From the NCBI GenBank assembly GCA_964421935.1, contig CAYQZM010000207.1, positions 5,567 to 69,566 of the forward strand: DNA of 64,000 nt, written 5' to 3'. The notes under the pieces were generated by a model, which was not told the origin of the DNA, did not search any database, and worked only from the letters and a program-made list of their open reading frames with translations. The position numbers and the translations under genes were made by a program. This document shows, piece after piece, positions 495-18,578 of this stretch. Source of the stretch: an uncultured Rhizobium sp. GTDB lineage: Bacteria > Pseudomonadota > Alphaproteobacteria > Micropepsales > Micropepsaceae. The stretch's first letter is position 1; each line of letters starts with the position of its first letter.

Positions 495-526
495 CCCACG
501 CTATCGCTTTTGTCCGTCGCTGAAAG

Positions 527-1100: not shown

Positions 1101-1355
1101 ACTATCGTTGGGCGAGGCGTTCCTGACCGGGCTCTCGCCCCATGTCCGCTGCCTGCGCAGCGACCGAGTGGGCCGGTCAAGATCGAGCCATGTGGCTATG
1201 GCGCGAACTGGACCTTGAGACCTTGATCTGGACCAGGGGCGCGAAAACATGGTCGATTACGGCTACTGGCGACGAGTGCCCTTCACGATCACAGCCCGCG
1301 AGCAGGCAAAGCCGAAACCCTCCTAGCCCGCAAGACGCAAGCTAGCTCCGGCTCC

Positions 1356-1559
1356 TCAAAAATCGTTGGTGCTAGTCATGACGGCATCGCTATTTAGCCG
1401 CGCCTCGATGCTCTCTAGGTCTCGCAGATGCGCCCAGTAGGGCGCCCCGGCCCCCTGGCTCAATTCCGAACGGCATTTTTCCATATAGAGTTCGATCGCC
1501 TTCTGAAGGGCGATACATTCACCGTCATGCAAGGTCAACCTGTAGGCGTAAGTGGTCAT
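1356..1559 (-). CDS. Hypothetical small protein (67 aa)
   Basis: ATG start preceded by AGGAG (minus strand ...aaaggagatgtaacgATG). Non-repetitive sequence (MTTYAYRLTLHDGECIALQKAIELYMEK...). No family recognised. Confidence 0.45.
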   Translation of the reverse strand: MTTYAYRLTLHDGECIALQKAIELYMEKCRSELSQGAGAPYWAHLRDLESIEARLNSDAVMTSTNDF

Positions 1560-1595
1560 CGTTACATCTCCTTTCCAGCGTATTTGCGCGGTCCG

Positions 1596-1931
1596 CTAGC
1601 CCTTGCGAGGCGAAGGGCGGGACCATCCGCCGGGGCCTCGCTCATACGGACCCTCAAGCCTGTCATACTGGTCCTTGAGTGGCTGCAAGAACGCGATCCC
1701 GTACGCGCCCGAATTGTTATACATCTCGTCGAACGCGGGCTTGCCGCCGCCCAAGAACCGTTGAAAGAGATCAGCGGCCCGGCTTTCATCATACCCGTTG
1801 GCGTACAACCCTCGGCACAGAAGGCTGAAGCCCTGATTACTAAAGACACTTTGGATCTTGTTGGGCGCAACTCCCCGGCGATGAAGCTCATTCGCTACGT
1901 AGTTGGAAAAGAAGAGCTTCTTGAACATCAT
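1596..1931 (-). CDS. Hypothetical protein (111 aa)
   Basis: Directly upstream of and co-oriented with 1356..1559 (36-nt gap). Globular-looking composition (MMFKKLFFSNYVANELHRRGV...). No family recognised. Confidence 0.45.
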   Translation of the reverse strand: MMFKKLFFSNYVANELHRRGVAPNKIQSVFSNQGFSLLCRGLYANGYDESRAADLFQRFLGGGKPAFDEMYNNSGAYGIAFLQPLKDQYDRLEGPYERGPGGWSRPSPRKG

Positions 1932-2148
1932 TTCACCGAAGCGATGCCGGCCCCGAAGAGCAGTCAGCCTTCATCGAGACTAGCTGAGGTGGGGGGCCAT
2001 CACAATGACCCGACGGCCAGCGCGATAAGGCGTCGGCAACCCACAGCATCGTATGGCAACGAAAGGACGCTGGCGGATGCCGCTCCCACAGGGAGAATTG
2101 TTTGAGCCGGAACATTCCTCTCCACGAGCGAGCAAAGCCAAGGCCCTC

Positions 2149-2353
2149 ATGATCCGGGACATCGACATCATTCGAGCTGCGAAGCAGATCATCGACCAGT
2201 TCCCCGATGATCCGGTGATGGAAGCCGCTCAACCTGCGGATGCCGCTTACGAGTTGGGGGACATGTTCAACTTCGACCTCTGGACCCCGCATCACCCAAG
2301 CGGTGGGCGACCTGCTCCGCACAACAAGAAATCCGGACGAACCACTGAACTGA
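2149..2353 (+). pseudogene. Small conserved hypothetical protein, apparently frameshifted (+1 in a C-run)
   Basis: MIRDIDIIRAAKQIIDQFPDDPVMEAAQPADAAYELGDMFNFDLW, then the sensible continuation (T)RITQAVGDLLRTTRNPDEPLN-stop is in the +1 frame after cccc at 2285-2288. The pattern matches small alphaproteobacterial proteins I recall (..W..A..li.qhGddA...A..rAd.l...GD..g...W.rI..Ai.eL.r..P), but I cannot name the family. Confidence 0.4.
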
Positions 2354-2577
2354 GTGCCAGAGACGAAGTCCTAGAACAATCGCGCGCATAGGACCCGGGT
2401 CCAGCCAGTACCCGACCATGCCATGGCTTGCCCTTATGGGGTCCGGTGCGGTTGCGCACATCGTCCCAGCCGCGAGTCATCAATCCCTAGCGCATGGAGG
2501 CGCCAGCAACCCTAGGCTCGGAACGCCGCGAAGCGTCACCTGTTGAGTCGGAAAACAACAACTCACTGGGTAATGGC

Positions 2578-3470
2578 ATGGCATCCGCACGACGCAAAGA
2601 AGCGCCGCCAAAAGCGCGCGCCCTCAATATTCCCGGCCTAGCGACCAGACCAGCATGGCAGGGACACCTCCGGCTATCGCTCGTCAGTTGCGCGGTCGGG
2701 CTTTATACCGCGACTACAACCACGGGCGACATTTCCTTCAATCTGATCAACCCCGCCACTGGGAATCGCATCAAGATGATAACGACCGACCCCGATACGG
2801 GTCCGGTGCCAAGATCGAGCCTGGTCAAGGGTTATGAAATAGAGAAAAACAATTACGTTCTCTTCACCGAGGAAGAAATTCGGTCCGTCCGGCTCGAAAC
2901 AACCAATACGCTTGAGATCGAGCGTTTCGTTGATGCGGACACGATTGACCGTCTTTACTGGGATAGCCCCTACGTTCTGAGCCCGCTCGATGATGGCTCT
3001 GCTCAAGCGTATGCCGTCATCCAGGAAGCGATGCGCCGCACCAATCGGATCGGCCTTGGCCGGGTTGTGATGCACGGTCGAGAGCGCCTCATGGCGATTG
3101 AAGCGCGCGACGCGGGGCTACTGGCTACCTCTCTCAGGATGAGGGACGAGGTCCGGAACACTTCCGAGGCACTCACGAGGGTCCCTCATGGAAAGCCCGA
3201 CAACCAGATGATCGCCATTGCGGAGCAAATCATCGCCCAAAAGGAAGGCCCGTTCGATCCGTCGCAATTCACAGATAGGTATGAGGACGCGTTGCGCGAA
3301 CTCAAGAGAAGAAGCGTGGGCACAAGATTACTAAAGTGGCCGAGCCGGAGGATGTGGGTAATGTCGTCGATCTCATGGAGGCCCTGCGCAAGAGCCTAAA
3401 AGGCGAGGGCTCGCCGAGAGCCAAGCCGAAATCTCCCGCGACCGTGAGCCCGATCAAGAAAAAGAGGTAG
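2578..3470 (+). pseudogene. ku: Ku (NHEJ DNA-end-binding protein) with an apparent 1-nt deletion near the 3' end
   Basis: Ku core motifs are present: WQGHLRLSLVSCAVGLYTA, VKGYEIEKNNYVLFTEEEI, IERFVDADTIDRLYWDSPYVLSP, RIGLGRVVMHGRERL. The frame ends abnormally at 3399 (..ELKRRSVGTRLLKWPSRRMW..). The typical Ku tail KKRGHKITKVAEPEDVGNVVDLMEALRKSLKGEG...KKKR is encoded in the -1 frame from 3309 to stop 3468-3470. Start codon uncertain (ATG 2578 or 2494). Confidence 0.85.
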
Positions 3471-3474
3471 CGTC

Positions 3475-3660
3475 ATGGGCCAGCAACATCACAAGCTGTA
3501 CTTTCCCTATCTTCCTTCGGACCGTCAGGGCTACATCGATTTCTTCAGTGACAACAACACGAACAAGGAGCCAGTGATCTTGGAGGACGGCACCAGCGTC
3601 CAATTCCCCGCGGATTGGACGGATGAAGACGCCGACAAGTGGCGCAAGGGACGCAGCTAG
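3475..3660 (+). CDS. Small protein (61 aa) with C-terminal W-T-[DE]-E-x-A-x-[KR]-W-R-K motif
   Basis: ATG lies 4 nt after the shifted-frame Ku stop. The C-terminus VILEDGTSVQFPADWTDEDADKWRKGRS is paralogous to the C-terminus of ORF 14964..15212. Confidence 0.5.
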   Translation: MGQQHHKLYFPYLPSDRQGYIDFFSDNNTNKEPVILEDGTSVQFPADWTDEDADKWRKGRS

Positions 3661-3998
3661 AGCGCCCCAGCGGCTACCGAGCGGTTTCCATGGACATGGT
3701 CGGTCTGTTGACCAAGAATCGGGGTTCTTCCTTCCCGACATTAGACATGCGATGTCCGCTTTCGCACAGATGGCGACAGGGCAACTGTCAGGGCTCACTG
3801 CCGAGTCGGAAGCGCGATTAGTTGCAGAACTCAAGAAGCAAGCCGAGGGCCTGCGCAGCGCCGCCCGGAACCGATCTTGCGCAGGAAGACAAAACATGAC
3901 CTTCAAGCGAATGATCCGGCACCGAAAAGGCCGTTTCCCGGTTCTTCCCGAAAGAGTCGTGGAAAGCAGCCGCGAATAAGCTGACGGTTACCTTCGCT

Positions 3999-5306
3999 CT
4001 ATGGCAGTGAATTTCCGGGTTCCGCTCCGCCACCGCTTTGAGGCGAAACGAATTCACCATTCTCCTGATTTCTAATGAGAGTCAGCAGCCGAAGAAATTC
4101 TTCGTTCTTCGTATTGCTCTTCCACATATTCACAAACTGACACACAACCTGAATGTTGCCGGGCGCGTAGTGACCATCGCTGTCAATGCGATCTGGTGAC
4201 GGCAGAAGGTTCTTGTCTGAATCAAAGTCGCCATGAAAATGAAATGCTATCCCCGTGAGTGCACAACGGTCTCCCTGAATTTTCATTCGCTCACGCAGGT
4301 AAGCCTCAAGCTCCTGATCTGAGTCAAAGCCGAGATCCTTCACCTTCATCTGCATATTTCGGGTCACGATCTGACCACGCGACTGAGACACGGTATTCAG
4401 TATACTCAACCGCATGTTCGTTATCGAGCGTTCGCGCGCTCCTAGCACCCGTCCGTCGTCCCGCCCCTTTTGGGTAACCGTTTCCGCTCCCTCCGGCACG
4501 CGCTTGAGAAGCGTCGCGAATATCCAACAGAATGAATGCGCGTCCACAAGGCGGACATTCTTAAGGTCAGCGACTTCTTCGAGGGCTAGACGCACTTCAC
4601 CGAGGATTGCATTGAAGCGTTTGTAGTTGTCCCAGTTGCAATTTTTCAGAGAGGTGAACCGAACACCAAGTTCGGGGAAGACCCTGTCGAAGCCGGTCGG
4701 TTGGATCGGCATGAACCGGCTCATATCTTTGAGAAAATATAGGTACGCGGATAGCGTATATTTGCGCCCCGTGAGTTCGCTTAGTCTATCGAACAGTGCC
4801 CCTTCGTCGGTGTCGGTCCGATACAACTCGAACAAAGCATTTTCGATCGCGCGCCGCGAACCTTGATCCTGTTGGGCATCCAAAAGAGCGCGATGCTCGC
4901 GACTCAAATGGCCGTATCGGTTCTGCCAGAACACGAAATTGTTCGTGAGCCCGCCGGGACGGTTATCCTGAATCTCTATCGCAGCAATCGTTCGGTCCAG
5001 AATTCCACCCTTGCCAATCGTATTATGTTGCCAATTAGCCGCGTCTAGCTTGGATAGGGCAAGATCGCGCAATTTGGGCTTATAACCCTCCCAAACCGCC
5101 GCAAGACCTTCGTTAAGGCTGGTGAATTCGTGCCCACTGTAGATCGCTACAAGTTTCTGAAAGCGATTGAATGCCGTTCGGAAACCAGGTTCGTCCAGAG
5201 CCATCACGTCATTCCCTAAACCTAGATTGTCCCGAGAGCCCCGCTTTGGGACTACGGGCGCAAACACCTTTCTGGGTCTTGATGCCGCTTCCTTTGCACA
5301 CTCCAA
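3999..5306 (-). CDS. HNH-like (His-Me finger) nuclease-domain protein with large uncharacterised N-terminal domain
   Basis: The C-terminal ~70 aa are DRCALTGIAFHF...NLLPSPDRIDSDGHYAPGNIQVVCQFVNMWKSN, a C-x-x-T-G ... DRID ... GN-x-x-x-x-C-x-x-x-N-x-x-K pattern like HNH/His-Me finger variants. The N-terminal ~330 aa has no recognised family. Start uncertain: TTG 5306 or ATG 5204 with AGGGAA upstream. Immediately downstream of the helicase gene on the same strand. Confidence 0.7.
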   Translation of the reverse strand: MECAKEAASRPRKVFAPVVPKRGSRDNLGLGNDVMALDEPGFRTAFNRFQKLVAIYSGHEFTSLNEGLAAVWEGYKPKLRDLALSKLDAANWQHNTIGKGGILDRTIAAIEIQDNRPGGLTNNFVFWQNRYGHLSREHRALLDAQQDQGSRRAIENALFELYRTDTDEGALFDRLSELTGRKYTLSAYLYFLKDMSRFMPIQPTGFDRVFPELGVRFTSLKNCNWDNYKRFNAILGEVRLALEEVADLKNVRLVDAHSFCWIFATLLKRVPEGAETVTQKGRDDGRVLGARERSITNMRLSILNTVSQSRGQIVTRNMQMKVKDLGFDSDQELEAYLRERMKIQGDRCALTGIAFHFHGDFDSDKNLLPSPDRIDSDGHYAPGNIQVVCQFVNMWKSNTKNEEFLRLLTLIRNQENGEFVSPQSGGGAEPGNSLP

Positions 5307-5321
5307 AACTGGAATGTTTCG

Positions 5322-8300
5322 CTAGGCGTGCTGGTGCTCACCCTTTTTCTCAATGTTGAGGACCATCCATTTATGAACCTTGCCGTCAAACTCGAATTCG
5401 ACCTCGTCGTCCTCTTCCGCCCCGAGAAGAGCGACCCCGGAAGGATGTCGAACGGATATTATGCCGAGGCTCGGGTCGTGCCGATCCGCAGATAGCGTCA
5501 GCACCCTTACCCGATTGTCGTCGCTAACTTGGACCTGCACACGGCTTCCCACTTTAACCACGACAGCTTCCTCGGTCGGAAGGTGACTGTACGCCTCCGG
5601 TGCACGATCAGACGCATCTTTGCCGGGTCTACCGCCATCCTCCGTTGCGTCTTTCGCAACGGGATATTTGCGAAACTCTGTCCATACATTCGGCAACCGG
5701 TCATTTCCTATCGGTTCAATGCCCAACAAAGACAGGCTGCCGACCAAATCATCAATGCAACCCTCAGGATCAATTCTGTAGCTAGACCCCCAGCAGCGCC
5801 AGAAGCGCCAGCCGACGCGCTCCATCACTCGTTGGCGTGCCAAATCCTCGGCCCACTTCTCCGGGCCATGGTATTTGTCTCCATCAAGCTCGACCGCAAG
5901 CCGGCGATCCTCCCGACCTTCCACGACCAGATCAATCGAGTATGGCCCGACGCTGACCTGTGGCTGTGCACTGTATCCCAGCTTAATTAGGCGCGTGAGA
6001 ACGTCACGCTCAAAGGCCGAATCGCACAATGCCAGCAGATCGCCGGTCGGCTGCGAGCGGCCTGCCATAGCACTCTTGAAGTGGCGTAGCACTTTTGCCT
6101 TTAGATCGTCCGGCTTGAGCATTTCTTCCGTCACCGAACGGAAGAGATATTGGCGATCACGGGCGCGTGACAGCGCCACATTAAACCTTTGTTGAAGCGC
6201 CAACGCCGTTTTAGAGGTGCAGGTCTGAGGGCACTCAACCATGCTGAGAAGAACAATATCGCGCTCTTTCCCTTGGAAGATTGCGGAATCGCCACATGCA
6301 ATATCGTGGCGAACATATGCCTCCTCGCCGATCCGCTTTAGAAGCAAGGATTGAATGAGAGCGGCCTGTTTTGCGCCGATGAGCGAGATTATCCCTATGT
6401 TGCGGCCTGCCATCGCTGGATCGGCAACAATCCCTGCAACCTCATCAACAATCGCCTCCGCCTCGGCCAGATTCCGATTGCTCTTGTCCTTTTGGCCGTT
6501 GGTGACGTGAACATCGATTAGGGGCGGGGAAAGGCGTTCCGAAGCCTTCGGGAGGCGAACCGGCACGATTTCTTCCGTGTAAAATTGAAAGCTAAAGCGG
6601 ATGATCGGTTCGACACAACGGAAATGCTCCCGGAGCATGATGCGTCGGCCCGGAAAGCAAGCCAAGGCTAATTCATAGAGCGAATTGCCCGGAAGCATAA
6701 GCGCGCCGAAATGCTGACCATCGAGATAGTGCATTCTAAGGGAGCGAATTTTCTGCTCTTCGATGAAAGCCGCAGTGGGACTGACCTGCTTATCGTCGCC
6801 GACCACGAGTACCTTCTTCGCCCGTAAGATTGCCGGAAGAGCGCTAATATCGGATTGAGACGCTTCGTCAATAATGACGAGATCGAAGGAGCAAAGGGTC
6901 GAAGGCAGGCTCTCCGAGATGCGCCAACTTGGCATAATCCAGCATGGAACAGCGGCGTAGGAGGATTCCATAGCATCGCGGGCATCCCTCCGCAGACGCG
7001 AAGCGCTTTTTCCAGTGCCTTTGCCAATCTTGCGGATCGCCGTGAGAAACATCTGCAAGGCGGCATCAATTTTGCGGGTGATCCGAGCTTTAAGCGTCAA
7101 CAATGTCCTTAGGCGAACGACAGATTGGAAGAGACGATGTATCTCGTCGTCCGCAGCGAGTCTGTGTTGATCAAGTTCCCGCAGGCGGGCACGTCCATCA
7201 ATGGCGCGCAAGTGCGCGTCGGCTTGCGCCCATACCCATGCGCCCTGCCAATCCTCCGGTGTCCATGGATCATCCACTCCGGTGACAGGCATGGTGCGGA
7301 GTGCATTTCCCCAATGTGGCGCACCGGATTGAGAAACCACATCTGCTACATTTGCAACGGTTTCCAAAAGGGTCCGCAGACCGCGGATGCGATCAAGCTC
7401 CGCTAGGAGGGCTCGCCAGTTGTCGGAGATGACATTCGGGGAAAGGTCAGGCGATCCCACTTCACTGTTTAGGAACTCCTTCAAGTGGCGCGAAATGCGT
7501 CCGCTCCGAGTCTCCAACTGAGCCTTCGTATCATTGAGCTTCGCACGAGTAATCAGCAAGCGATGTCGTGAAATTTCCGAACGAATGGCATCGGCAGCTT
7601 CGAGGGCGGCTTTCTCGCTTTTTGTGACTTCTACGGCGTTTAGCCCAAAACGAAACAGACGGGGCGACTCCGTCAGCACCATTGGGATATGCAGCCGGAT
7701 CGCCTCGGCTATCAAGCTGACATTCTGGGCGTGCAATTGCAGGGCACGCGCTGCGTCATTGAACTCCGATGGAACGTCCGGAAGCGAAAACTCCGCGCGG
7801 AGAGCCCGCCACCGTGCCAACGTGTCTGACATATTTCGTTGCCAGACCAACACGTCTAGGACAGCCTTCCATTGAACCACCGACTGGGCGGGCACGCCAA
7901 GGATGCGTATTGAATTGAACGCAGCCCGCAATTCGGACTGACCCCAGCCGATCAAGCCAAACGGCTTTTGACCAGCACACGCCCGCTCGACCGCGGAAAC
8001 GAATTCCGGAATTGCGTATGCGCCTTCCGGAACTGAGACGCCATAGGATGTAATTTGGGTCCGCTGCCGTATGACCTCCCGCATCTCCGCAAAAAGTGTT
8101 GCCAAGGGGCGCACAGATTCCGCGTCCATCCCGTTGCGCTGCCACTCTGCTAATATGGTACCCAGCCACTTGTGCGCCGCGCATGATCCTTGGACTGCTG
8201 CCACCGCTTCCACGGCTGATAAAAGAGCACCTGCTCTCGCCAACGCATCGGCCTCGGACGATGACATGACCGGCGCGTTGGCGTCCCGGTCGCGCTCGAT

Positions 8301-10295
8301 GCGCGCGGCGTTCGCCAAATCTTGGTGGATAGCTCCCATGGCAGCCGGGTCAGGTAGGTCCGATGTGCTGGGCAAGTCCGCGCCAATATAATCAAGGTCG
8401 GAGCCAAGTGCTTTGCGCGCTGCACGGGCGGCGTGAATTTCCTCTGGGCCAAATTGCGGTTTTCCAGCCTCCGAAAAAGCCGGCCTATCAACAAACCAGT
8501 CATAGCGGTCGCGATCTCGAACAATACGTTCGGCAAGCTCAATGGGCAAAATTCCATCGGTGTCTTTGGTCGCATCGACCCGCCGAAGATGTTTATCGGC
8601 AAATGCACGCATTTCGGCATCGATTTTGGTGATGCGGTGTTGGAGTTCAGTTATGCGCCCTTCGCTGTCGCGGACATCGCGCTCCATGCTCCGCGTGTCC
8701 AGCGACGCAATGCGTGACGCAAGCACATTAACTGTCGTCTCAAGTTGCTTGAGCCCCTCTCTTTCGGAGGTCAGCAAGCTGATTACGAGGTCTCTTATCC
8801 CTTCTGGGATTTGATCCCGAAGCACTGCAAGTGCGCCTTCGCTTTTGGAGGTGACAAGAACGCGACGCCCTGTGGCTAGATAATGACAGATTATGTTTGC
8901 AATGGTGTGCGTCTTCCCGGTGCCGGGAGGACCTTGAACAACCACTCCCTCTACACCCGGATCCTCCAGACGCTGCACGATTGCGATTTGCTCTTCATTG
9001 AAGGCTTTCGGAAAGAAAAACTGGGACTGGGAAAGCTGCCCCTCATTTGAACGGGATTGCTCGTATCCCGCGCTCGCAGCCATCCCTAGCGTGCCGAAAG
9101 CGCCGAGGGAGGTTGTGTATGTCTTTTCATCTGATGGCGAAGTTACGAGCGCCACAGCCGGAGCCGGCAGCGTTTCAGCAGATTCGACCGCCTCCCTCAA
9201 ACGCATCAAGTCGGCAGTGAAAAAATTCTCTGATCGCGGTCGTGCGTAAAGCGCCCAAGTATCAGTGAGAACGAGGTTTGGGCCAGCGGGCGGTACAGAC
9301 CTATCATCCGGTGGCACCGCATCGGGGTGGTATCGACCGCTTTTATCAAACTGCGCGCAAGCATAACGAAGAACAGGCGTATAGGTATCTTTGACGAAAG
9401 GAGAAAATTCATCCTCAATGACGCTACTGGTGAAATGTTCTCGTGCGAAGCGAGCAACTAAGTCGACGCCGGGGTTTTCCATGGCGTTGTAAGGCTTCAA
9501 GGCCAAAAACGGATCAAGACTTCGGGGCCTTACCAGAATGGCTCCGGCTTCATCGAGTTCCAGTTCGACCAGTTGCTCGATGAGCGGGTGATCCAATTCA
9601 TTTGGTGGCAACTTCCATCTCGCGATCCCCATGCCCCAAACGACCTCCAGGGGACGCTCCGCCCCTTCAAGCTTCAAGGCTTGTTGCAGGCCGAATACAC
9701 GTTCATAGATGTCTATAGTTTCGCGGCGTGGTTTTTCAGCTAGCGCCCACTGCGGCCACGTTTGGGTGACATAGGTCTCAACCTGCGCCTTCGCGTCCGG
9801 GAAGCGGTCGATGCGAAAAATAACATCGCACGAATCCTCGCCCGGCTTGGGCTTCAAAGTTTTCGATATATCCGTGGGATCGATTGTACCTGCCGCGACG
9901 AGCTTGGCAGCTTCTGTCGCGCTTATCACGGATGTGCGAAATGTCTCGACGAGCGGCTCTTTGAAAGGATCACGTCCGACCGTGAGCCAATCCTTCGCTT
10001 CCAGAGGGGGCTCGGGAGGATCGGTTCGCCGAAGACGGTCGATTTTTAGATAGACTACTCCATCCGCGTCTTTGATGTCGTGCCGTATTCCAATCCGATT
10101 GCGTAGGTCCTGTTCCGTGAGAACGAGATTGCTATAGCTCGACACTGACCAAACTGGCTTGTCTGCCATTTCGATCAACACCCGCACATAGTCGATAAGC
10201 TGGGACAAGCTCCGCTGTTCTTGAGAGAGCGGCGCTGCGTCAGAAATTTCCTCGGACGAATTCATAACGCCGCGTCCCCCTCGACTATCATTCAC
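5322..10295 (-). CDS. Giant SF1 (Upf1-like, DUF4011/AAA_11/AAA_12-type) helicase fused to a DUF559/Vsr-like PD-(D/E)xK nuclease and a GreA/GreB C-terminal-like domain
   Basis: Walker A [14 protein letters not shown] (~8907-8933). Motif II [9 protein letters not shown] (~6858-6880), then [33 protein letters not shown] and [10 protein letters not shown]. Nuclease module YSIDLVVEG...[37 protein letters not shown] (~5700-5990). The tail [22 protein letters not shown]...[37 protein letters not shown] aligns with the GreA C-domain. Alternative start ATG 10265 with GAGGGGGA upstream. Confidence 0.9.
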   Translation of the reverse strand: [1657 protein letters not shown]

Positions 10296-10689
10296 GATTC
10301 GCTGACTCTAGAAAACCTGATGGCAGGATACTAGCTCAAGGTAATTACTAGATCACTCTCGATCAGTCTCGGACTATCCAGCTTAACCTGAATTGTATCC
10401 CGTGTCCTCTGGTCTGCGAAATCATCGGAAGTCTCACCTGTCATGCATTCGATACACGAAGGAAAACTTCCGTGACACACGCACACCGGACCGCGACATT
10501 TCCGTACACGGAATTGCACGGTATGGTCGCTGCCGCAGGCCCGCATTGACCAAAACCACCTCAGCGGAAGTGGACGAGCGGTTCGCAATTTCGGTCTATT
10601 GAGTCATGCCCTGAACTGGCGAAAGTGTAAGAAACGGGATAGCTTGGCAATTGTCACTTGCGTCTCCCTCGTTATCAAGCTGGCTGTCC

Positions 10690-11814
10690 ATGACAATTAA
10701 GCTTCTTCACACCGCTGACTGGCAGATTGGCAAAGGCTTCGCCAACTTCGAGGGGGATGCAGGAGCGCTGCTGCGCGCTCAGCGGCTTAAAACGGTAGCG
10801 CGAATCGCCAATATCGCAAACGAGCAACGAGTCGATGTAGTGCTCGTGGCGGGAGACGTGTTCGAGACGAACGCAGTGGCTGATGACACGCTGCGGCGCA
10901 CATTGAACCACATGCAATCGTTCAAAGGGCCGTGGGTCCTATTGCCGGGCAACCACGACGCGGCACTCGCCGACAGCGTATGGACTCGCCTTACTCGCAT
11001 CGGATTGCCAGACAACGTGAAACTCGCAGTCCGGCCAGAGCCACTTCTGCTAATGAATGACCGGCTTGCGATTCTACCAGCGCCACTCGCGCGGCGTCAT
11101 GAGGCGACAGATATAACGGAATGGTTCGACACGGCGGTCACGCCGACCGGTGTCTTCCGGGTTGGTCTCGCTCACGGCAGCGTGGCGAACCGCCTGCCTC
11201 AAAAGTCAGATGCGCTGAATATGATCTCCGACACCCGCTCGGAAACGGCAAAGCTCGATTACCTTGCGCTGGGGGATTGGCATGGGACGCTGGAGATCGC
11301 GCCCCGCACTTGGTATTCCGGAACACCGGAGCCTGAGCGCTTCCGCAACAATGAGCCGGGTAACGTTCTGATGGTTACCCTCACCGGGGCCGGAAGCGCG
11401 CCTATGGTCGAAGTGGTCCCTGTGGGCCACTTTAGCTGGAAACAATTGGACCACACGGTCTCCAGCACTGATGACGTGGTGGTTCTCGATGGTCTGCTCG
11501 CCGCTGAGTCGCAGGCTGATCGGCTTGTCGTCAGTCTTACCGTCCGAGGAATAGTCGATCTCGCTACCCGGAGACTCGTGGAGGAACTGATAAACCGCCA
11601 TCGTGCGCGTTGCCACGTCCTCCGCACAGACGACGATGAGCTTGTAGGGGTGCCGAGCGATCAGGAGCTTGATCGCATTGATACAATGGGTTTCGTCCGC
11701 GCTGCCATCGATGAACTTCGGATCAAGGCAAACAACGCCAGCGATAGCGAGAGTCAGGTCGCGCGCGTGGCCTTGCAGAAGCTCTACCTCGAACACTTGC
11801 GGCTGGGTGATTGA
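10690..11814 (+). CDS. SbcD/Mre11-like metallophosphoesterase (DNA repair exonuclease family)
   Basis: Calcineurin-like phosphoesterase motifs are in order: LLHTADWQIGK, VLVAGDVFE, LLPGNHDAAL, LAHGSV, ALGDWHGT. The stop overlaps the next gene's start (ATGA at 11811-11814). The ORF track starts at 10651; ATG 10690 fits the family N-terminus. Confidence 0.8.
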   Translation: MTIKLLHTADWQIGKGFANFEGDAGALLRAQRLKTVARIANIANEQRVDVVLVAGDVFETNAVADDTLRRTLNHMQSFKGPWVLLPGNHDAALADSVWTRLTRIGLPDNVKLAVRPEPLLLMNDRLAILPAPLARRHEATDITEWFDTAVTPTGVFRVGLAHGSVANRLPQKSDALNMISDTRSETAKLDYLALGDWHGTLEIAPRTWYSGTPEPERFRNNEPGNVLMVTLTGAGSAPMVEVVPVGHFSWKQLDHTVSSTDDVVVLDGLLAAESQADRLVVSLTVRGIVDLATRRLVEELINRHRARCHVLRTDDDELVGVPSDQELDRIDTMGFVRAAIDELRIKANNASDSESQVARVALQKLYLEHLRLGD

Positions 11815-14468
11815 TGCAGATTCGCAAGATCGAAATACAGAATTACAAAAAGCTGATCGGGCCTGTTTTGATTGATAAGATCGGCGACGGAATCACCGTG
11901 ATCGCCGGAGATAATGAGGAAGGCAAAAGTACGCTTCTCCAAGCTCTTCGGGCAGCATTGTTCGACAGACATAATCTCACGGGGGACGCAGCGGATGCGA
12001 TGCAGCCCTTCGGACATCGTGTCCGTCCTGAGATCGGGCTCGAATTTGAGATCGGGGGCATCACCTACAGGCTCAAGAAAGGCTATTGCCAAAAGCCCCA
12101 TGCTGAACTCGTTATGCCGAACGGCGTCGTCCTGACGGGACCTGATGCCGAGGAGAAGCTCCAGGAGCTACTGCGCTTCCGCCCACCCGGAAAGGGCCAA
12201 GGGAAGCCAGAACAGCATCATGGCGTGTTCGGCATGTTCTGGATCGAGCAGGGCCGCGCTTTCAGCCCGCTCCCTCTAAGTCCGGACAACCGAACCACAT
12301 TGATGGGCGCGCTCGAAAGCGAAGTCGGCCAAGTGCTCGGCGGCGCGAGAGGCCGGACCCTAAAGGATAATATTGCCGCGCGTTATCGCGTGGTCTTCAC
12401 CGATGGCGGGAAACCCCGTGGCGCCTATGCGGAGGCGATTTCTCTGGCGGAAAAGCTGGAAGCGGAAATTGGCCCCAAGCGAGAGCAGCTAAAGCAATAT
12501 GAGGACAAAGTAGACGAATTGGCCCGAACGCGGGATCGGCTGTCTGGATATGAGAAGGAAGGGCGACTGGCCCGTGCGGAGGATGGTCTCAAGACCGCCC
12601 AAGCGAAGCTCGATCATATTGGCAACCTCGAAAACAATGTCGCCGCTGCTGAACAGGCATTTCGCCTAGCGGAAGCTGATGTCCGGTCCCCGACAACCGC
12701 CGTGACGCAGCGCGATGCTCTTATCGAACGTGAAAATAAAGATCGCGACGAGGCAGGCAGTTTCAATGTTCCACTAAAGAGAACCGAGGAAGCCGTTACG
12801 CGCTTGTCGGAAGACTTCACGGTGCGCGCTGATGCGCTCAAGGCCGCTGAGTCCATGTTGGATGAAGCGAATAAGAGACTTCTTGCAATTGACCAGACGA
12901 TTGAACGCCGGCGTTTGACCGCTGAGCGGGATCGTCTGGCGGCTGCGCTTGACGCAGCGAAAACTGCCGACGGCACCGCCCGAGAAGCCCGTGCCGAATC
13001 GTCGGCTATTAAAGTGGATGCCGCGGATCTGAAACGACTCCGGACTTTCGATCAGAAGCGGATTGAGGCAGAAGGCGCACTTGCCGGATGCTCTACGCTG
13101 ATTCAGTTTCAGTTGAAAGCGGATAATCCTGTAATGGTAGGCGGCACCGCAGCCCCATCGTCCGGCGACGTGTCCATAACCGATCCAACGAAGTTGGAGA
13201 TCGTAGGCACAGGCACCATCACGATTATTCCTGGCGGCGAAGAACTCTCGACGAAACGCAGGAACGCAGAAACTGCCCGCGAGGCATTCCATAGTGCTCT
13301 GCAGAAACTCGGGTGTGCCTCGCTCGCGGAAGTGGAACGCTCGGTGCAGGAACGCCAAGCTTACGATGCCGATGCGGACAAGTACGCGGAAGTGTTGAAA
13401 ATTCATGCACCCGAAGGTGTCGATAAACTCAGTGAACAACTGTCAGACGCTATCGCCTTAATAGCGAAACTTCCCGAGGCCGAGGATGATAGCGGCTTAG
13501 ACCGGGCCACCGCATTGGCAGCGCAACGAGAAGCCGACCAGCGAGTCAAGAGTGCGCGGACGCAGCGTGATACTTGCCAAGCGAAACTTGGCGAGGCTCA
13601 GCAGGAGTTGGCGAAGCAGCGAGCGCTCAGCAGTTCAGCCGCCCAGAAGGCCGCAGGCACCGCCGCCGAACTCGAACGGGCGCGTCAGGAGAAGGCCGAT
13701 AATGTGCTGCGCGGGGAATTGGCGACCGCGACAAATCAGCTAACTCAGGCGAAAGCCGTTCTTGAACAGGCTCAGCGGCTGCTCGCCGAGGCCGATCCCG
13801 AAGTAGCGCGGCTATCCTTTGAGAGTGCGCGCGACGGCCACAAGGCCATTCGAGACGAAATAGATAGATTATGCACCACGACCGAAAGGCTTGCCTTGGA
13901 ACTGCAATTGCTTGGGCAGCAAGGGCTTGGTGAAGCTATTCAGGAACTTGAGGGCCAGCTTGCCCTCGCAATAGCGCGGCGGGATAGCGCGAAGAAAGAT
14001 GCCGACGCCCTCAAACTTCTCTACCACACCCTTGTCCGTGCAGAGCAGCACGCTCGCGAAGCGTTCCTCGCCCCGGTGCAAAAGCGCGTGCAGCCCTATT
14101 TGAGACTACTCCTCCCGGAGAGTGAACTCGTGCTTTCCGAGGATGATCTTGGCGTCACGGCACTCCGGCGCAATGGGCAGGACGAGCCGTTTGAATCCCT
14201 CAGTGTAGGAGCGAGGGAACAGGTTGCCGTTCTCACGCGTCTAGCGTTCGCCGATTTGCTGCGCGAGCGAGGCGTCGTCGCGCCGGTTGTTCTCGATGAT
14301 GCGCTAGTGAATAGCGATCCGCGCCGTTTCGAGCGCATGTTGCTAGCGATCCGACGAGCGGCGAAGAATCTTCAAATCATCGTGCTGACCTGTGACGAGG
14401 CGGATTGGGTGCAGGCGGGCGCGCCGATGATCCGACTCCAAGATTGCATCGGCATGCGGGCAAACTAA
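11811..14468 (+). CDS. SbcC/Rad50/YhaN-like coiled-coil ABC-type ATPase (885 aa)
   Basis: N-terminal Walker A VIAGDNEEGKSTLLQALR. A ~550-aa Ala/Glu/Leu/Arg-rich coiled-coil middle. C-terminal signature/Walker B LSVGAREQVAVLTRLAFADLL...APVVLDDALVNSD...IIVLTCDE. Confidence 0.85.
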   Translation: MMQIRKIEIQNYKKLIGPVLIDKIGDGITVIAGDNEEGKSTLLQALRAALFDRHNLTGDAADAMQPFGHRVRPEIGLEFEIGGITYRLKKGYCQKPHAELVMPNGVVLTGPDAEEKLQELLRFRPPGKGQGKPEQHHGVFGMFWIEQGRAFSPLPLSPDNRTTLMGALESEVGQVLGGARGRTLKDNIAARYRVVFTDGGKPRGAYAEAISLAEKLEAEIGPKREQLKQYEDKVDELARTRDRLSGYEKEGRLARAEDGLKTAQAKLDHIGNLENNVAAAEQAFRLAEADVRSPTTAVTQRDALIERENKDRDEAGSFNVPLKRTEEAVTRLSEDFTVRADALKAAESMLDEANKRLLAIDQTIERRRLTAERDRLAAALDAAKTADGTAREARAESSAIKVDAADLKRLRTFDQKRIEAEGALAGCSTLIQFQLKADNPVMVGGTAAPSSGDVSITDPTKLEIVGTGTITIIPGGEELSTKRRNAETAREAFHSALQKLGCASLAEVERSVQERQAYDADADKYAEVLKIHAPEGVDKLSEQLSDAIALIAKLPEAEDDSGLDRATALAAQREADQRVKSARTQRDTCQAKLGEAQQELAKQRALSSSAAQKAAGTAAELERARQEKADNVLRGELATATNQLTQAKAVLEQAQRLLAEADPEVARLSFESARDGHKAIRDEIDRLCTTTERLALELQLLGQQGLGEAIQELEGQLALAIARRDSAKKDADALKLLYHTLVRAEQHAREAFLAPVQKRVQPYLRLLLPESELVLSEDDLGVTALRRNGQDEPFESLSVGAREQVAVLTRLAFADLLRERGVVAPVVLDDALVNSDPRRFERMLLAIRRAAKNLQIIVLTCDEADWVQAGAPMIRLQDCIGMRAN

Positions 14469-14498
14469 TAGTTGTAATATTCTAGGGACCGATTGAGC

Positions 14499-14627
14499 TC
14501 AAACCGTCCGGCGTCGCACGTGGACCTGGATGCGATAGCTGTCAAACTTCACTTCATGGACCCACTGCGGGCCGTTCGGGATAACATCGGATAGTGTCGC
14601 CAGCTTGGGATCAATGAAGCCGGGCAT
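14499..14627 (-). pseudogene. ligD: Truncated ATP-dependent DNA ligase LigD (first 42 codons only)
   Basis: The minus strand encodes MPGFIDPKLATLSDVIPNGPQWVHEVKFDSYRIQVHVRRRTV-stop. This matches the N-terminus of the LigD ligase domain, including adenylation motif I (K-x-D-G-x-R, here KFDSYR). Similarity ends ~30 nt from the SbcC-like stop codon. Too short for the ORF track. Confidence 0.6.
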
Positions 14628-14787
14628 CTCTGCCCCGGGTCCGGGTGACGGTCCTGGAGGCTAGCAGGTGCTTCGCGCGCATGGCAGCGACTCAGTGGCG
14701 GGAGCCAGAAAATGGCCCGCGTCCCGATCTCGGGAACCCCGCGATTTAACTCACGTTGGTTCTGATGGAGAACCCAGGGAGATTGCC

Positions 14788-14967
14788 ATGGCTACCAATG
14801 CACCTGCAGGTGATGGGCATCGCAACGGCGCCGTCCGGAAACGCACGCAGTTGAAGACCAAGGTGCAGGGCGAAGAGCGGTTCGTGAAGCGCAGCAAAGC
14901 GACCGGGCAGTTCATGGACCAAAAGGAGGACAGGACCAAGTTCAAGGGCGTCCGTCGCGAGAAGTGA
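14788..14967 (+). CDS. Small basic hypothetical protein (59 aa)
   Basis: ATG 14788 preceded by GGAGAACCCAGGGAG. Sequence MATNAPAGDGHRNGAVRKRTQLKTKVQGEERFVKRSKATGQFMDQKEDRTKFKGVRREK. Stop overlaps the next ORF's start (GTGA). Confidence 0.4.
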   Translation: MATNAPAGDGHRNGAVRKRTQLKTKVQGEERFVKRSKATGQFMDQKEDRTKFKGVRREK

Positions 14968-15212
14968 CAGGGCAGGAACGCAGCCTTCAGCCCCACGGCC
15001 ACACGTCCGACTGCCCGGACAAGGGTAAAGGCGAGGAATGCGCCGATTCTGCAGGCAACCATACGGACATCTTCTGTGACGGATGCCACGAGTGGTTTAC
15101 CGAGCCCCAGGTCCTGCGCAACGGCTCTGATATAGCCTGGCCCTCGGGGTGGACTGAGGAACAAGCCGGGCGTTGGCGGAAGGACCACCATCTAGAGCGC
15201 CCGTCTGCTTAG
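14964..15212 (+). CDS. Small Cys-containing protein (82 aa) with C-terminal W-T-E-E-x-A-x-R-W-R-K motif
   Basis: Four Cys (DCPDKGKGEEC...FCDGCHEW). The C-terminus QVLRNGSDIAWPSGWTEEQAGRWRKDHHL is paralogous to that of ORF 3475..3660. Confidence 0.45.
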   Translation: MTGQERSLQPHGHTSDCPDKGKGEECADSAGNHTDIFCDGCHEWFTEPQVLRNGSDIAWPSGWTEEQAGRWRKDHHLERPSA

Positions 15213-15221
15213 GCTGGCGGC

Positions 15222-15910
15222 GTGAATATTGCGACCTTCAACATAAACAATGTCAACAAGAGGCTCGCGAACCTGCTCGCTTGGCTCTCGTCCGAGAGTC
15301 CCGATGTGGTTTGCCTACAAGAGCTGAAGTCGGAGACCCGTAGCTTCCCCATAGCGGCCATCGAAGACGCCGGTTATCACGCCGTATGGCAGGGCCAGCG
15401 CACCTGGAACGGTGTGGCGATCCTGCCCAAAAGCAGCCAGTCCTGACGCGCCGGGCACTTCCTGGCAACAAGGATGACGATCAGGCCCGATACATAGAAG
15501 CCGCGGTCTCGGGCGTTATCATCGGGTGCATCTATTTGCCGAACGGCAATCCACAGCCTGGGCCGAAGTTCGACTACAAAATCTCTTGGTTTGATCGACT
15601 CATCAAGCACGCTCGGAGCCTAGACAAGGAGGGGCTGCCGATGGTTCTCGCCGGAGATTTCAACGTCGTGCCCGATTTATCCATCGACATTTATCCGACG
15701 CGGTCGTGGGATAAGGATGCACTGACCCAGCCGCAGCCCCGCGCCCGGTTCGCCCTTCTTCAACAAGAAGGCTGGCTCGACAGCCTGTGGGCCAAACATC
15801 CAGGTGAACGCCTGTACACATACTGGGACTACAAGAGGCAGCGTTGGGAAAGGAATGGGGGCCTGCGACTGGACCACCTCTTGCTCAACAAACCACTGCG
15901 CAAACGGTTG
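15222..15910 (+). pseudogene. xthA: Exodeoxyribonuclease III (Xth) remnant, frameshifted and lacking its C-terminus
   Basis: N-terminus MNIATFNINNVNKRLANLLAWL...VVCLQELK...WNGVAIL stops at 15446. The continuation KQPVLTRRALPGNKDDDQARYIEA...YLPNGNP...VLAGDFNVVP...RLYTYWDY...GLRLDHLLLN is in the -1 frame, with the shift at cccaaaag (15426-15433). No SDHAP-type C-terminal motif follows; the frame runs into the integrase ORF. Confidence 0.75.
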
Positions 15911-16051
15911 TCCGCGCCGCCCACAAAGCAGGGTCCCCTCCTACCAGCGTCGAATGCCACCCCGACGGCAGGATCGTTTTGTGCTTTGGTCAGCCCCCGG
16001 TCGATGCGGAGGACGTTCTCGACCGTGAGCTCATGGAGTGGAAGCACGGAA

Positions 16052-17086
16052 ATGCCAATGGTTAAAATCAAAGGGAGCCCCGTAAAGGTCCGGTCGAAAG
16101 GCCGCGACTATTGGTATGCATGGCGGAAGGGACCCCGGCTCTTGAGCGAGCCGGGGTCGCCCCAGTTCTTGCAGGAGCTCGCGGATGCCATAGCGGCCCG
16201 AAATTTGCCCGCCGGTCCCGATAAAATTGCTGTACTGGTGGCCCAGTACAAAGCGAGCTCAGATTTCCAGGACCTTTCCACCTCGACCAAGGACCTCTGG
16301 TCGCCCTGGCTGGACAAAATCAGGGATCACTTCGGGAAGCTCAGCCTCCGTCAATTCGACCGCATCACGATGAAACCGGAGATCAGGCGGTGGCACTCTT
16401 CTTATAAAGCGACACCCCGAGCCGCTGACACTGGACTGCAAGTGCTGTCCCGAGTGCTCAGCTTCGGTATCTCGGAGGGCAAACTGGCTACCAACCAGTG
16501 CGGGGAGATTGAATACCTGCACCGCTCAGACCGCGCGGACATCATATGGACGCCGGATGACCTCGCGATCCTGCTGCCCCATGCCTCGCCAGAAGTGTCC
16601 CAAGCCGTACGGCTCGCTGCGCTGACCGGCCTACGACGGGCCGATCTGTTTAAGCTGGCCTGGAGCCATGTTCACCTGGAGAGAGGCTACATCGAGCTCA
16701 AGACCAACAAGGGCCAAGGGAAGCGGACGGTGCTGATCCCGCTCTATGATGAACTGCGGACCCTTATCGAGAGCCTGCCCAAGAGGGCCGCGACGGTTCT
16801 CACGAGCTCGAAAAAGCGGCCCTGGACGGGGGACGGATTTGGGTCGTCCTGGTGGAAGACCCTGCAGGACGCTGGAATGGGCGGAACTGAACTCCGGTTT
16901 CACGACCTCAGGGGGACTGCGGCCACAAACTTCTTCCGGGCCAACTTTACCAACCGGGAGATCGCCGAGACCTTGGGCTGGGCCGAGGAGCGGGTCGAAC
17001 GCCTGATAGACCGCTACGTCAAGCGGGATGAAATCATACGGGACCGAATCCGCCGGATGGACACGACAAAGCGCCAGACAGCCTAG
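16052..17086 (+). CDS. Tyrosine recombinase / phage-type integrase
   Basis: C-terminal catalytic-domain pattern: LAALTGLRRADLFKL, ELRFHDLRGTAATNF, LIDRYV. Lies directly next to the 3' end of the tRNA-Gly gene. The ORF-track entry 15386..17086 fuses it to the xth remnant. Confidence 0.9.
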   Translation: MPMVKIKGSPVKVRSKGRDYWYAWRKGPRLLSEPGSPQFLQELADAIAARNLPAGPDKIAVLVAQYKASSDFQDLSTSTKDLWSPWLDKIRDHFGKLSLRQFDRITMKPEIRRWHSSYKATPRAADTGLQVLSRVLSFGISEGKLATNQCGEIEYLHRSDRADIIWTPDDLAILLPHASPEVSQAVRLAALTGLRRADLFKLAWSHVHLERGYIELKTNKGQGKRTVLIPLYDELRTLIESLPKRAATVLTSSKKRPWTGDGFGSSWWKTLQDAGMGGTELRFHDLRGTAATNFFRANFTNREIAETLGWAEERVERLIDRYVKRDEIIRDRIRRMDTTKRQTA

Positions 17087-17093
17087 CTGCCAC

Positions 17094-17125
17094 GAAGCCC
17101 GCCCGGCAAGGCGGGCTTCTTTGTT
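17094..17125 (+). terminator. Rho-independent terminator after the integrase
   Basis: gaagcccgcc-cggcaa-ggcgggcttc (perfect 10-bp stem) followed by tttgtt. Confidence 0.65.
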
Positions 17126-17200
17126 CCGGGTCAGAACGGCCAGAAGAACAAATTCTGCAAAACCGACTGCAAAACCGTTCTGGGGATTTCAGCTAAGTGC

Positions 17201-17274
17201 TGGAGCGGGTGAAGGGAATCGAACCCTCGTATGCAGCTTGGGAAGCTGCCGTTCTACCATTGAACTACACCCGC
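17201..17274 (-). tRNA. tRNA-Gly (anticodon CCC)
   Basis: The reverse complement is GCGGGTGTAGTTCAATGGTAGAACGGCAGCTTCCCAAGCTGCATACGAGGGTTCGATTCCCTTCACCCGCTCCA. It folds as a cloverleaf: 7-bp acceptor stem, D arm GTTC/GAAC, anticodon stem GCAGC/GCTGC with loop TTCCCAA, T-loop TTCGATT, and encoded CCA. Confidence 0.9.
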
Positions 17275-17356
17275 AGAGGCGCCTTTTGGCTCCTTTTTGG
17301 CTCAGTCTTGTACCAAGGGGCTGATTCGTGGGTCAATCGGCCATTGGAGGGGAAAG

Positions 17357-17605
17357 ATGGCTGAATATGACCGCCTGTTGGCCGAGGCCAAAGCGCTCGG
17401 TATCCCGACCAATTCCCAGGTCTACAAGCCGCGGTCTGACGCCTGGACCGAACTTCAGATCACGGAATGGGAGCTTCATCGCCGCATTAAAGAAGAAGAG
17501 CGACATCGGCGAGAGCATAAACTTTGGATCGTAGCCGTCATTTCCGCGGTCGTGTCTGTTCTTTCGGCTCTCGCTGCGTGGGCGGCAGTCTTTGCCCATC
17601 GATGA
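17357..17605 (+). CDS. Small membrane-anchored hypothetical protein (82 aa)
   Basis: ATG preceded by GGAGGGGAAAG. Charged N-terminal part, then a C-terminal TM segment LWIVAVISAVVSVLSALAAWAAVFA. Confidence 0.45.
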   Translation: MAEYDRLLAEAKALGIPTNSQVYKPRSDAWTELQITEWELHRRIKEEERHRREHKLWIVAVISAVVSVLSALAAWAAVFAHR

Positions 17606-17613
17606 ATAAACGC

Positions 17614-18462: not shown

Positions 18463-18578
18463 CGCGGTGCCGCCCTCTTGTTCAGCGAGCAATCCACTAC
18501 ACCCCGGCGGGAGCACGCGCGTCAACGAGCCCGCCCGAATATCCGGCAAACCGATATTTCCGGCAATCCGGCCTAAGC

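Follow-up and report, generated by a model that had tools for sequence, protein, structure and literature searches.

A compact four-gene stretch in a tRNA-Gly-linked island of an uncultured alphaproteobacterium is probably a mosaic of three exchangeable candidate defence modules

Does a tightly packed block of four intact genes, set beside decayed DNA-repair genes, represent one functional system or several neighbours of separate origin? The question is raised by positions 3999-14468 of a 64,000-nucleotide (nt) stretch, hereafter the window, of contig CAYQZM010000207.1 from an uncultured Rhizobium sp. (assembly GCA_964421935.1). A first-pass annotation, made from the letters alone, had recognized there an HNH-like nuclease gene, a helicase-nuclease gene and an SbcD/SbcC-like pair, and had proposed that the four constitute one horizontally acquired functional unit for defence or DNA surveillance. 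Comparison with approximately 160 related loci for the four proteins points instead to a tRNA-Gly-linked island stretch that is probably a defence-island mosaic of three independent, separately exchangeable candidate modules: the HNH-like gene (module A), the helicase-nuclease gene (module B) and the sbcD/sbcC-like pair (module C, hereafter also sbcDC).

Much of the physical description of the locus was borne out. The four long open reading frames (ORFs) are present and uninterrupted in the ORF list, and they lie in two divergent units separated by 355 nt, if the longest ORFs are considered, or by 424 nt, if translation starts at the ATGs at 10265 and 10690. Public gene calls, both on a metagenome contig of the same strain (L001, 99.98% nucleotide identity to the window) and in homologues, start at internal ATGs (5204 for module A, 10265 for module B, 10690 for the SbcD-like gene and 11814 for the SbcC-like gene) and yield proteins of 401, 1647, 374 and 884 amino acids (aa). 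The 401-aa ATG form of module A is also on record as P0001, and the gap between the helicase and HNH-like genes measures 15 nt with the TTG at 5306 or 117 nt with the ATG at 5204. The sbcD/sbcC junction, given earlier as ATGA, reads TTGATG instead, with the stop codon TGA at 11812-11814 and the start at TTG 11811 or ATG 11814; on this reading of the junction, the two genes are translationally coupled with either start. Promoter and terminator scans of the locus produced counts near chance level, and the terminator scan found none between the helicase and HNH-like genes. The Pfam scan detected no methyltransferase among the domains of the four proteins, upholding the view that this is not a restriction-modification (R-M) system with its cognate methyltransferase, and PADLOC and NCBIfam profile scans matched the four genes to no named system. 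Since an exact-sequence look-up with both helicase start variants returned no match, genomic context was drawn from homologues.

Tight packing in two divergent units, the short helicase-HNH gap and the coupled stop and start codons are all compatible with a system for defence or DNA surveillance that requires all four components and arrived as a whole, as are the intactness of all four genes beside decayed neighbours and the recurrence of the same arrangement on L001, though the latter is the same strain. The first-pass annotation had itself held that unlinked homologues would count against such a system. To examine linkage, we assembled the best 80 species-level genome loci for the helicase, with 10-kb flanks, and 73 loci for the SbcC-like gene, which yielded 63 full-length SbcD-like genes. 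None of the 80 helicase loci and none of the sbcDC loci examined contains the HNH-like gene, and these include L165, which carries a 93%-identical helicase, and L092, L093 and L095; the HNH-like gene is never linked to the other three genes outside this strain, and its relatives have other partners. Within the 80 helicase loci, an SbcD-like gene occurs once (L018, 28% identity) and an SbcC-like match not at all, and all-against-all clustering of the flanking ORFs revealed no conserved neighbour of the helicase family, the largest cluster spanning 5 of the 80 loci. The sbcDC-like pair, in turn, is accompanied by the helicase in its closest clade only. Breaks in homology coincide with the spaces between genes, and GC content differs among the modules. 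Largely refuted on these comparative data, the four-gene system is in our estimation highly improbable. Tight packing and joint intactness are no evidence of a functional unit without linkage across genomes, and the apparent four-gene system is best read as three neighbours in a defence island.

The separability of module A is further illustrated by its relatives (88-57% identity), which occupy four contexts other than that of the window. They are found after a UvrD-type helicase in an island adjoining ligD-ku (L007), after the tnsABC/tniQ genes of a Tn7-like element (L008/L009), within a type I R-M operon, where the gene overlaps the stop codon of hsdS (L010/L011), and, in Bradyrhizobium, after a DUF8370/8371 protein (L003-L006). 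In none of the relative contexts examined do they lie behind a module B-type helicase. Nucleotide homology between L007, which encodes the 88%-identical relative, and the window is limited to positions 4057-5219.

Modules B and C were found adjacent in only one narrow alphaproteobacterial clade, comprising four lineages and three arrangements. With the window and L001 as reference (divergent, with a spacer of ~0.4 kb), L165 (helicase 93%, SbcC 86% aa identity) is divergent with a 1.26-kb two-ORF insert that brings its spacer to 1.5 kb, L092/L093 (68% and 79%) are divergent, and in L095 (68% and 77%) the helicase is inverted and co-directional with the pair. The nucleotide homology of L165 to the window consists of two blocks with sharp edges, 5271-10415 (89%) and 10563-14467 (86%), which end within ~50 nt of the gene ends and leave out the intergenic core. 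The segment that occupies this place in L165 (8594-9851; ORFs of 111 and 253 aa, neither with a recorded Pfam match) corresponds to 147 unrelated bases in the window.

This adjacency raises the prospect of a three-gene partnership, to which the HNH-like gene would be unrelated and in which the SbcDC-like complex would process the ends arising where the helicase has exposed or nicked target DNA. The proposal draws on the occurrence of the two modules side by side in four lineages and three architectures, on the presence of the helicase in 4/5 lineages of the sbcC clade at ≥77% identity, and on a sole independent hint in L102 (5381-14848), where a distant pair (39% identity) is followed after 20 nt by a co-directional 1890-aa helicase-nuclease of the PDC-S37/ProA class. 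It is countered by the 79 of 80 helicase loci without an SbcD-like gene within 10 kb, by helicases that stand without sbcDC at 66-76% identity (L012, L050 and L166/L167, which form one clade at 91-92% identity, and L168/L169), by a pair that stands without the helicase at 81% identity (L094), as do all more distant loci, and by the lack of conservation of the intergenic region that would serve as a shared promoter. Moreover, OLD, PDC-S06 and PDC-S46 genes are as frequent after distant sbcDC pairs, which fits defence-island clustering, and the four linked lineages might stem from one island ancestor. We deem a three-gene partnership unlikely, and favor the mosaic of independent modules.

The neighbourhoods of the sbcDC-like pair are in line with such a mosaic. 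The SbcD-like gene lies directly upstream of the SbcC-like gene in every locus with room for it among the 73, and the neighbours of the pair are not conserved across the loci examined. In distant clades, the gene located 20-434 nt after the pair is a rotating defence candidate, as identified with PADLOC. OLD is directly downstream in L119, L120, L123 and L127, and in L121 as judged by blastp clustering; PDC-S06 is directly downstream in L118 and L128, and by clustering in L122 and L125; PDC-S46 follows directly in L104, by clustering in L130, and, as a 721-aa ORF, lies beyond the helicase in L092/L093; PprRE is downstream in L100, and in L136 SngC is encoded on the opposite strand at a distance of 331 nt. 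The alternative that sbcDC belongs to the conserved core and borders a hotspot was considered too and ruled out, as its upstream flanks are not conserved either. In L165, an OLD/AriA-like fragment lies directly downstream of the pair. As for the helicase, its neighbours in L166 are AbiEii/AbiEi, a group II intron reverse transcriptase and transposases, and in L092 the helicase and sbcDC are surrounded by nSTAND3, TIR, integrases and PDC-S46.

The island setting is indicated by the composition of the window and by its right-hand border. The HNH-like and helicase genes have a GC content of 0.52-0.585, as against 0.56-0.60 for sbcDC and 0.61-0.64 to the right of ~18 kb, so that the region is lower in GC than its right-hand flank, as the hand counts had indicated. 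A tyrosine integrase adjoins a tRNA-Gly(CCC) gene, which is likely the integration site of the island, and L165 carries a homologous integrase/tRNA-Gly block (69% nucleotide identity to window 15952-17274; its 344-aa integrase is 73% identical over 337 aa) next to which both the helicase and the sbcDC blocks recur. Together with the typical defence-island genes found around the relatives, these observations substantiate the proposed horizontal acquisition. Because L165 has a homologous integrase and tRNA-Gly, the linked helicase-sbcDC lineages may descend from one island family. A search for an att repeat, which allowed up to 3 mismatches to the 3' end of tRNA-Gly and also covered general repeats over positions 1-20000, found none in the window, and the far end of the island may lie outside it.

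The earlier picture of a wrecked ku-ligD locus holds for ligD and xth but finds no support in ku or the recombinase. Ku, apparently intact, is a single 301-aa ORF, with the same 301-aa call on the public contig and 46% identity to the Ku of L007. The supposedly broken resolvase is a tyrosine integrase, which likewise appears to be whole and starts at an ATG of its own near 16046. As stated before, the right edge of the cassette lies ~30 nt from the end of ligD homology, the ligase fragment ending 30 nt from the SbcC stop. This ligD stub was assigned by motif reading alone (a KxDGYR-like KFDSYR), and the short piece has no Pfam match. The split of xth was confirmed, positions 15222-15446 matching Exo_endo_phos positions 1-79 and those from 15386 onward matching positions 85-215. 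The ORF at 15386-17086 is chimeric, the xth remnant running in frame into the intact integrase. ORFs of 110-225 aa at 6-494, 597-1094, 1428-2105, 2053-2391, 3454-3906 and 3623-3979 gave no Pfam match.

These flanks invite a reading in which the sbcDC-like pair and the helicase-nuclease are not defence genes, but accessory genes for DNA repair or genome maintenance that travel with the ku, ligD and xth locus. Ku, the ligD stub and the xth remnant lie alongside, Ku is also found near relatives in L007 and L166, some homologues reside in housekeeping neighbourhoods, and the Bacillus subtilis proteins SbcE and SbcF (YhaN/YhaO) act in double-strand-break (DSB) repair and competence, SbcE possessing a unique central domain, as the protein does here (PMC2811018). 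The genes, nonetheless, are distributed sporadically and on islands, in the company of integrases, transposases and Tn7-like elements; PADLOC defence candidates recur directly beside them, the named proteins most closely related to the helicase are anti-phage ones, and the repair genes beside the cassette are those that are broken. On balance, a repair role of this kind seems improbable. Ku lies within ~10 kb of relatives on three unrelated contigs (window 2494-3399; L007 1-1477, with ligD; L166/L167 1-256). In this group of alphaproteobacteria, the surroundings of ku/ligD may form a hotspot where defence or mobile-element cargo collects, or else ku-ligD may have arrived as island cargo too.

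Features of the window at the four-gene stretch and its flanks, with the evidence for each
Feature	Position	Strand	Basis or remark
Ku	2494-3399	+	Pfam Ku 5e-41; one 301-aa ORF; profile positions 2-174 of 190
HNH-like ORF (module A)	3999-5306	-	Longest ORF, 435 aa, TTG 5306
Module A, stand-alone 401-aa protein	3999-5204	-	100% identical to P0001 and public gene call
Module A nuclease domain, residues 285-384	4053-4352	-	PHROGs match
Module A N-domain, residues 1-238	4491-5204	-	All-helical; alignment and AF2 (AlphaFold2) model
Helicase-nuclease ORF (module B)	5322-10295	-	Longest ORF, 1657 aa, GTG 10295
Module B, 1647 aa (1657 from GTG 10295)	5322-10265	-	Full-length 1647-aa homologues P0121, L001 call
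Module B GreA/GreB C-terminal domain	5349-5561	-	Pfam PF01272 6.1e-10, 39.4 bits, cutoff 26.9
Module B Vsr-fold REase_MTES_1575/DUF559	5739-6014	-	Pfam 7e-29, 100 bits, cutoff 38
Module B superfamily 1 (SF1; Upf1/Sen1/Dna2-like) core	6153-8999	-	Pfam AAA_11 2.9e-17, AAA_12 3.5e-14
Module B N-terminal conserved region, ~residues 1-380, alpha/beta	9126-10265	-	Conserved columns, AF2
Divergent intergenic region B/C	10266-10689		Centre 10416-10562 not kept in closest relative L165
SbcD-like ORF (module C gene 1)	10651-11814	+	Longest ORF, 387 aa
Module C gene 1, 374-aa SbcD/Mre11-like phosphoesterase	10690-11814	+	Pfam Metallophos 1.3e-10, PDB SbcD/Mre11 5e-6
SbcC-like ORF (module C gene 2)	11811-14468	+	Longest ORF, 885 aa
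Module C gene 2, 884-aa Rad50/SbcC-like ATP-binding cassette (ABC) ATPase	11814-14468	+	PDB profiles, PHROG SbcC-like 1.5e-23
ligD-type ATP-dependent DNA ligase start fragment, 42 codons	14499-14627	-	MPGFIDPKLATL...KFDSYR, six-frame translation
xth (exonuclease III family) remnant, frameshifted	15222-15930	+	Pfam Exo_endo_phos in two frames
Tyrosine integrase	16046-17086	+	Pfam Phage_integrase; own ATG
tRNA-Gly(CCC)	17201-17274	-	ARAGORN

For the helicase-nuclease, Pfam matches confirm that an SF1 motor (AAA_11/AAA_12) and a Vsr-type restriction endonuclease (REase; MTES_1575/DUF559) reside in one polypeptide, as initially described, and further reveal a GreA/GreB domain (profile positions 5-76 of 77) that the first-pass annotation had not reported. 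Most of the 120 top-ranking homologues are flagged for this Gre domain, which is matched (query end ≥1628) in ~21 of the 80 helicase loci, some of them only 36-38% identical. A PDB profile search with the motor retrieves Sen1, Upf1/Nam7, IGHMBP2 and Dna2, and its core consists of Walker A (GPPGTGKT), a ~610-aa insert that is partly coiled-coil, Walker B (DEASQ) and the second RecA domain (AAA_12). Both Walker motifs are invariant in the homologue alignment, and the insert is common to the ProA family, as the contiguous alignment to ProA profile positions 666-1703 attests. The MTES_1575/DUF559 domain has been defined as a Vsr-family REase (PMC3710099), and D1445, E1459, D1461, D1463 and H1466, counted on the 1647-aa protein, are its invariant residues in module B. 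The N-terminal region shows many invariant columns across phyla and a mean predicted local distance difference test (pLDDT) of 74.7 in the AF2 model; it has no Pfam match, DUF4011 being absent, and a Foldseek search against the PDB returned nothing at E≤0.001. The family comprises 3230 homologous database proteins, and relatives are encoded in at least 575 stretches of genome from many phyla. A relative with 51% identity lies on a short contig labelled Candidatus Thorarchaeota (L013, an Asgard archaeon bin), and 11 predicted viral contigs (IMG/VR, L177-L187) carry members of the family.

The SbcD/SbcC-like pair was correctly identified as a Metallophos/SbcD-like protein and an ATPase with a Rad50/SMC (structural maintenance of chromosomes) head on the basis of Pfam, NCBIfam and PDB profiles, and it departs from the canonical complex at several positions that are conserved within its own family. 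In canonical Mre11/SbcD, the metal ligands comprise D-x-H in motif I and G-H-x-H in motif V. The SbcD-like site (motif I HTADWQ, II GD, III GNHD, IV H162, V GDWH) is invariant in 64 sequences, and has Gln for the motif I His and Asp for the first motif V His. The invariance of this variant site suggests altered metal or substrate chemistry, rather than decay. In the SbcC-like protein, the N- and C-terminal head lobes match Rad50 in the PDB profile search and are separated by long coiled coils, whose center harbors a non-helical, invariant PGG region that includes P473-G474 in the alignment. The protein also bears Walker A and signature motifs, its Walker B reads LDDA, and the CxxC zinc hook is absent from the sequence. 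The SbcD-like protein scores below the NCBIfam cutoffs for TIGR00619 (54.1 bits; cutoff 77.65) and NF008206 (40.7 bits; cutoff 450), and no relatives of the SbcC-like family were found in viral contigs.

For module A, the label HNH-like holds at the domain level because its C-terminal ~100 aa (residues 285-384) match PHROGs endonuclease (1.3e-13), endonuclease VII (5.3e-13) and HNH (6.7e-8) families (3322, 1035 and 3118). The label finds no echo in other searches: Pfam gave no match even at E≤5, NCBIfam and PADLOC none, and the PDB sequence-profile search 0 matches at E≤10. The nuclease motif reads CALTGI...SPDRIDSDGHY..GN.QVVCQF.N.WK, with an invariant Arg (D338-R339-I340-D341) at the position of the canonical His, so that no D-H pair is formed; His345 is nearly invariant in the alignment and may stand in for the canonical catalytic residue. 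The N-domain is defined by the invariant motifs FWQNR.GH..R.HR, PIQPTGFD and DAHSF.W, and is modelled by AF2 with a pLDDT of ~85 over residues 1-238, the C-terminal half of the module A model being of low confidence; Foldseek found nothing in the PDB at E≤0.001 for this model. At E≤1e-3, the N-domain family comprises 696 cluster representatives (clusters at 50% identity), in which ~150 aa nearly always follow the domain and variable extensions often precede it. In seven IMG/VR viral contigs, the nuclease domain is joined to an N-domain of another kind. One of these proteins, encoded at 7419-8429 of the prophage-like contig L172, has 336 aa, of which the C-terminal ~140 are ~40% identical to the module A nuclease, and its gene is placed between capsid-like and tape-measure genes, a moron position.

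On this basis, a tentative mode of action can be outlined for each module. Module A would work alone, as a solitary restriction or abortive-infection nuclease, its helical domain recognizing a foreign-DNA feature or an infection signal and its His-Me-finger domain cutting DNA. In module B, an Upf1/Sen1-like SF1B motor would translocate 5'-to-3' on nucleic acid and the Vsr-type domain would cleave DNA, while the family-specific N-terminal domain might sense or autoinhibit. The C-terminal domain of Gre factors is their RNA polymerase (RNAP)-binding part, at the rim of the secondary channel. The GreA/GreB C-terminal domain of module B could similarly tether the enzyme to RNAP at that rim, and surveillance would therefore be coupled to transcription. 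In module C, which may be a nuclease-ATPase pair of the YhaO/YhaN (SbcF/SbcE) type, the Mre11-like phosphoesterase would degrade DNA ends or hairpins clamped by the Rad50-like ATPase. A bolder proposal, which we consider doubtful, takes the helicase-nuclease as a widespread, hitherto unrecognized class of immune or surveillance enzymes that dock on RNAP through their Gre-type C-terminus, in which the motor follows transcription and the Vsr domain cuts, cooperating with the SbcCD-like complex in the clade of the window.

Several observations weigh against a mosaic of independent defence modules. All three families score below threshold in every PADLOC and NCBIfam defence model, so that the case for defence is one of guilt by association. 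What the sequence and the comparisons show is that the genes are intact, which domains they encode, that the modules are separable and that they lie in an island, with defence genes around their relatives; it is from association that we infer a defence role for each module, anti-phage or anti-plasmid, and likewise the probable substrates. In the nuclease motif of module A, the catalytic His of the canonical type is missing, and the docking of module B on RNAP through its Gre domain is putative. The adjacency of B and C in four related lineages with three different arrangements, combined with the independent L102 locus and its closely following PDC-S37/ProA-class helicase, means that module C and Hhe-class helicases may cooperate functionally to some degree. 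Lastly, some B and C homologues lie among housekeeping genes, as in L168 and in loci beside genes that we take, from their sequence, to be dinB- or rlmH-like, and B. subtilis SbcE and SbcF function in DSB repair and competence (PMC2811018).

The locus yields three unnamed and widely distributed candidate families whose catalytic motifs are intact in sequence. Members of the module A family occur in R-M operons, in Tn7-like cargo and in prophages, and module C combines an invariant non-canonical metal site and the lack of a zinc hook with a position beside rotating defence candidates. Module B joins a core of the Hhe/ProA class to a new sensor-like N-domain and, in a sizeable subfamily, to a Gre domain, which by analogy suggests coupling to RNAP. 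If true, this coupling would provide a concrete mechanism for this helicase class, and the Gre-domain helicase-nuclease is the most interesting lead from this locus.

The C-terminal ~100 aa of module A resemble phage endonuclease VII/HNH (His-Me finger) nucleases, with matches at E ~1e-13, but module A differs from them in having no Pfam HNH match, in the Arg (DRID) that replaces the canonical His and in the fusion of the nuclease to a 240-aa helical domain without detected relatives. Septu, which pairs PtuA with the HNH protein PtuB, was rejected as the identity of modules A and C: no PtuA-type ATPase adjoins module A or its relatives, and PtuA models reach only the P-loop of the SbcC-like protein (E≥4e-5). 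Lamassu, Gabija/OLD and canonical SbcCD were discarded as identities for modules A and C because their PADLOC matches are at the P-loop level only. The best PADLOC match of the SbcC-like protein is the Lamassu protein LmuB, and both are SMC/Rad50-type ATPases, but the match is restricted to the N-terminal 52 residues, the P-loop (E = 1.8e-9), LmuA and LmuC are missing and the partner is an Mre11-like phosphoesterase.

Module C shares with SbcCD and Mre11-Rad50 the combination of a calcineurin-type phosphoesterase and an ABC ATPase with a bipartite head split by long coiled coils, and its genes are adjacent and, as read from their junction, translationally coupled. Unlike those complexes, module C falls under every NCBIfam SbcD/SbcC/Rad50 cutoff, its ATPase has a central PGG in place of the CxxC hook and LDDA rather than DE in Walker B, and its phosphoesterase carries D-W-Q and G-D-W-H instead of D-x-H and G-H-x-H. 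In B. subtilis, SbcE (YhaN) is SbcC-like and of the SMC type, possesses a unique central domain and is encoded beside an SbcD-like phosphoesterase (PMC2811018). The module C ATPase similarly has a central non-coiled region, matches Pfam AAA_27 weakly (20.3 bits, below the cutoff of 22) and has homologues that JGI in some cases labels 'YhaN', but module C is island-borne beside defence candidates and not part of a yhaONM-type operon. Literature searches returned no paper on SbcCD-like defence systems, none describing ProA or PDC-S37 and none on Gre domains in defence helicases.

The nearest relatives of module B, finally, are large helicase-nucleases. Like Hhe (NF042953, PDLC02194), module B is one large polypeptide with AAA_11/AAA_12 followed by MTES_1575/DUF559, encoded by a stand-alone gene in defence islands. 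It aligns to Hhe, however, over residues 1106-1524 only (162.5 bits against a cutoff of 2000 for NF042953), and lacks the DUF4011 N-terminus and the DUF3320 C-terminus (Pfam, E≤0.01), having instead an unrelated ~380-aa N-domain and the GreA/GreB C-terminal domain. ProA (NF058533) and PDC-S37 are its best-scoring named relatives. Residues 450-1521 align contiguously with ProA through the core, the large insert and the REase, but the score is 206.7 bits against a cutoff of 1500 on a 1903-position profile whose N-terminal ~640 positions are unmatched, and the 1550-position PDC-S37 model (PDLC05009) gives 198 bits over profile positions 916-1336 only. As a yardstick, the L102 helicase attains 1490 bits for PDC-S37, of which it is a true member, and 1388 bits for ProA, of which it is a near-member. 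In ten scans, six other members of the module B family (from Pseudomonas, Paraburkholderia, Klebsiella, Rhodopseudomonas, Solirubrum and an uncultured alphaproteobacterium) likewise fell short of the named-family thresholds, five of the other members scoring 194-275 bits for ProA and the members scanned 177-245 bits for PDC-S37. Because module B and these other members all fail the Hhe, ProA and PDC-S37 thresholds, module B is, judged by its profile scores, a sister family of Hhe/ProA/PDC-S37 with a different N-terminal domain.

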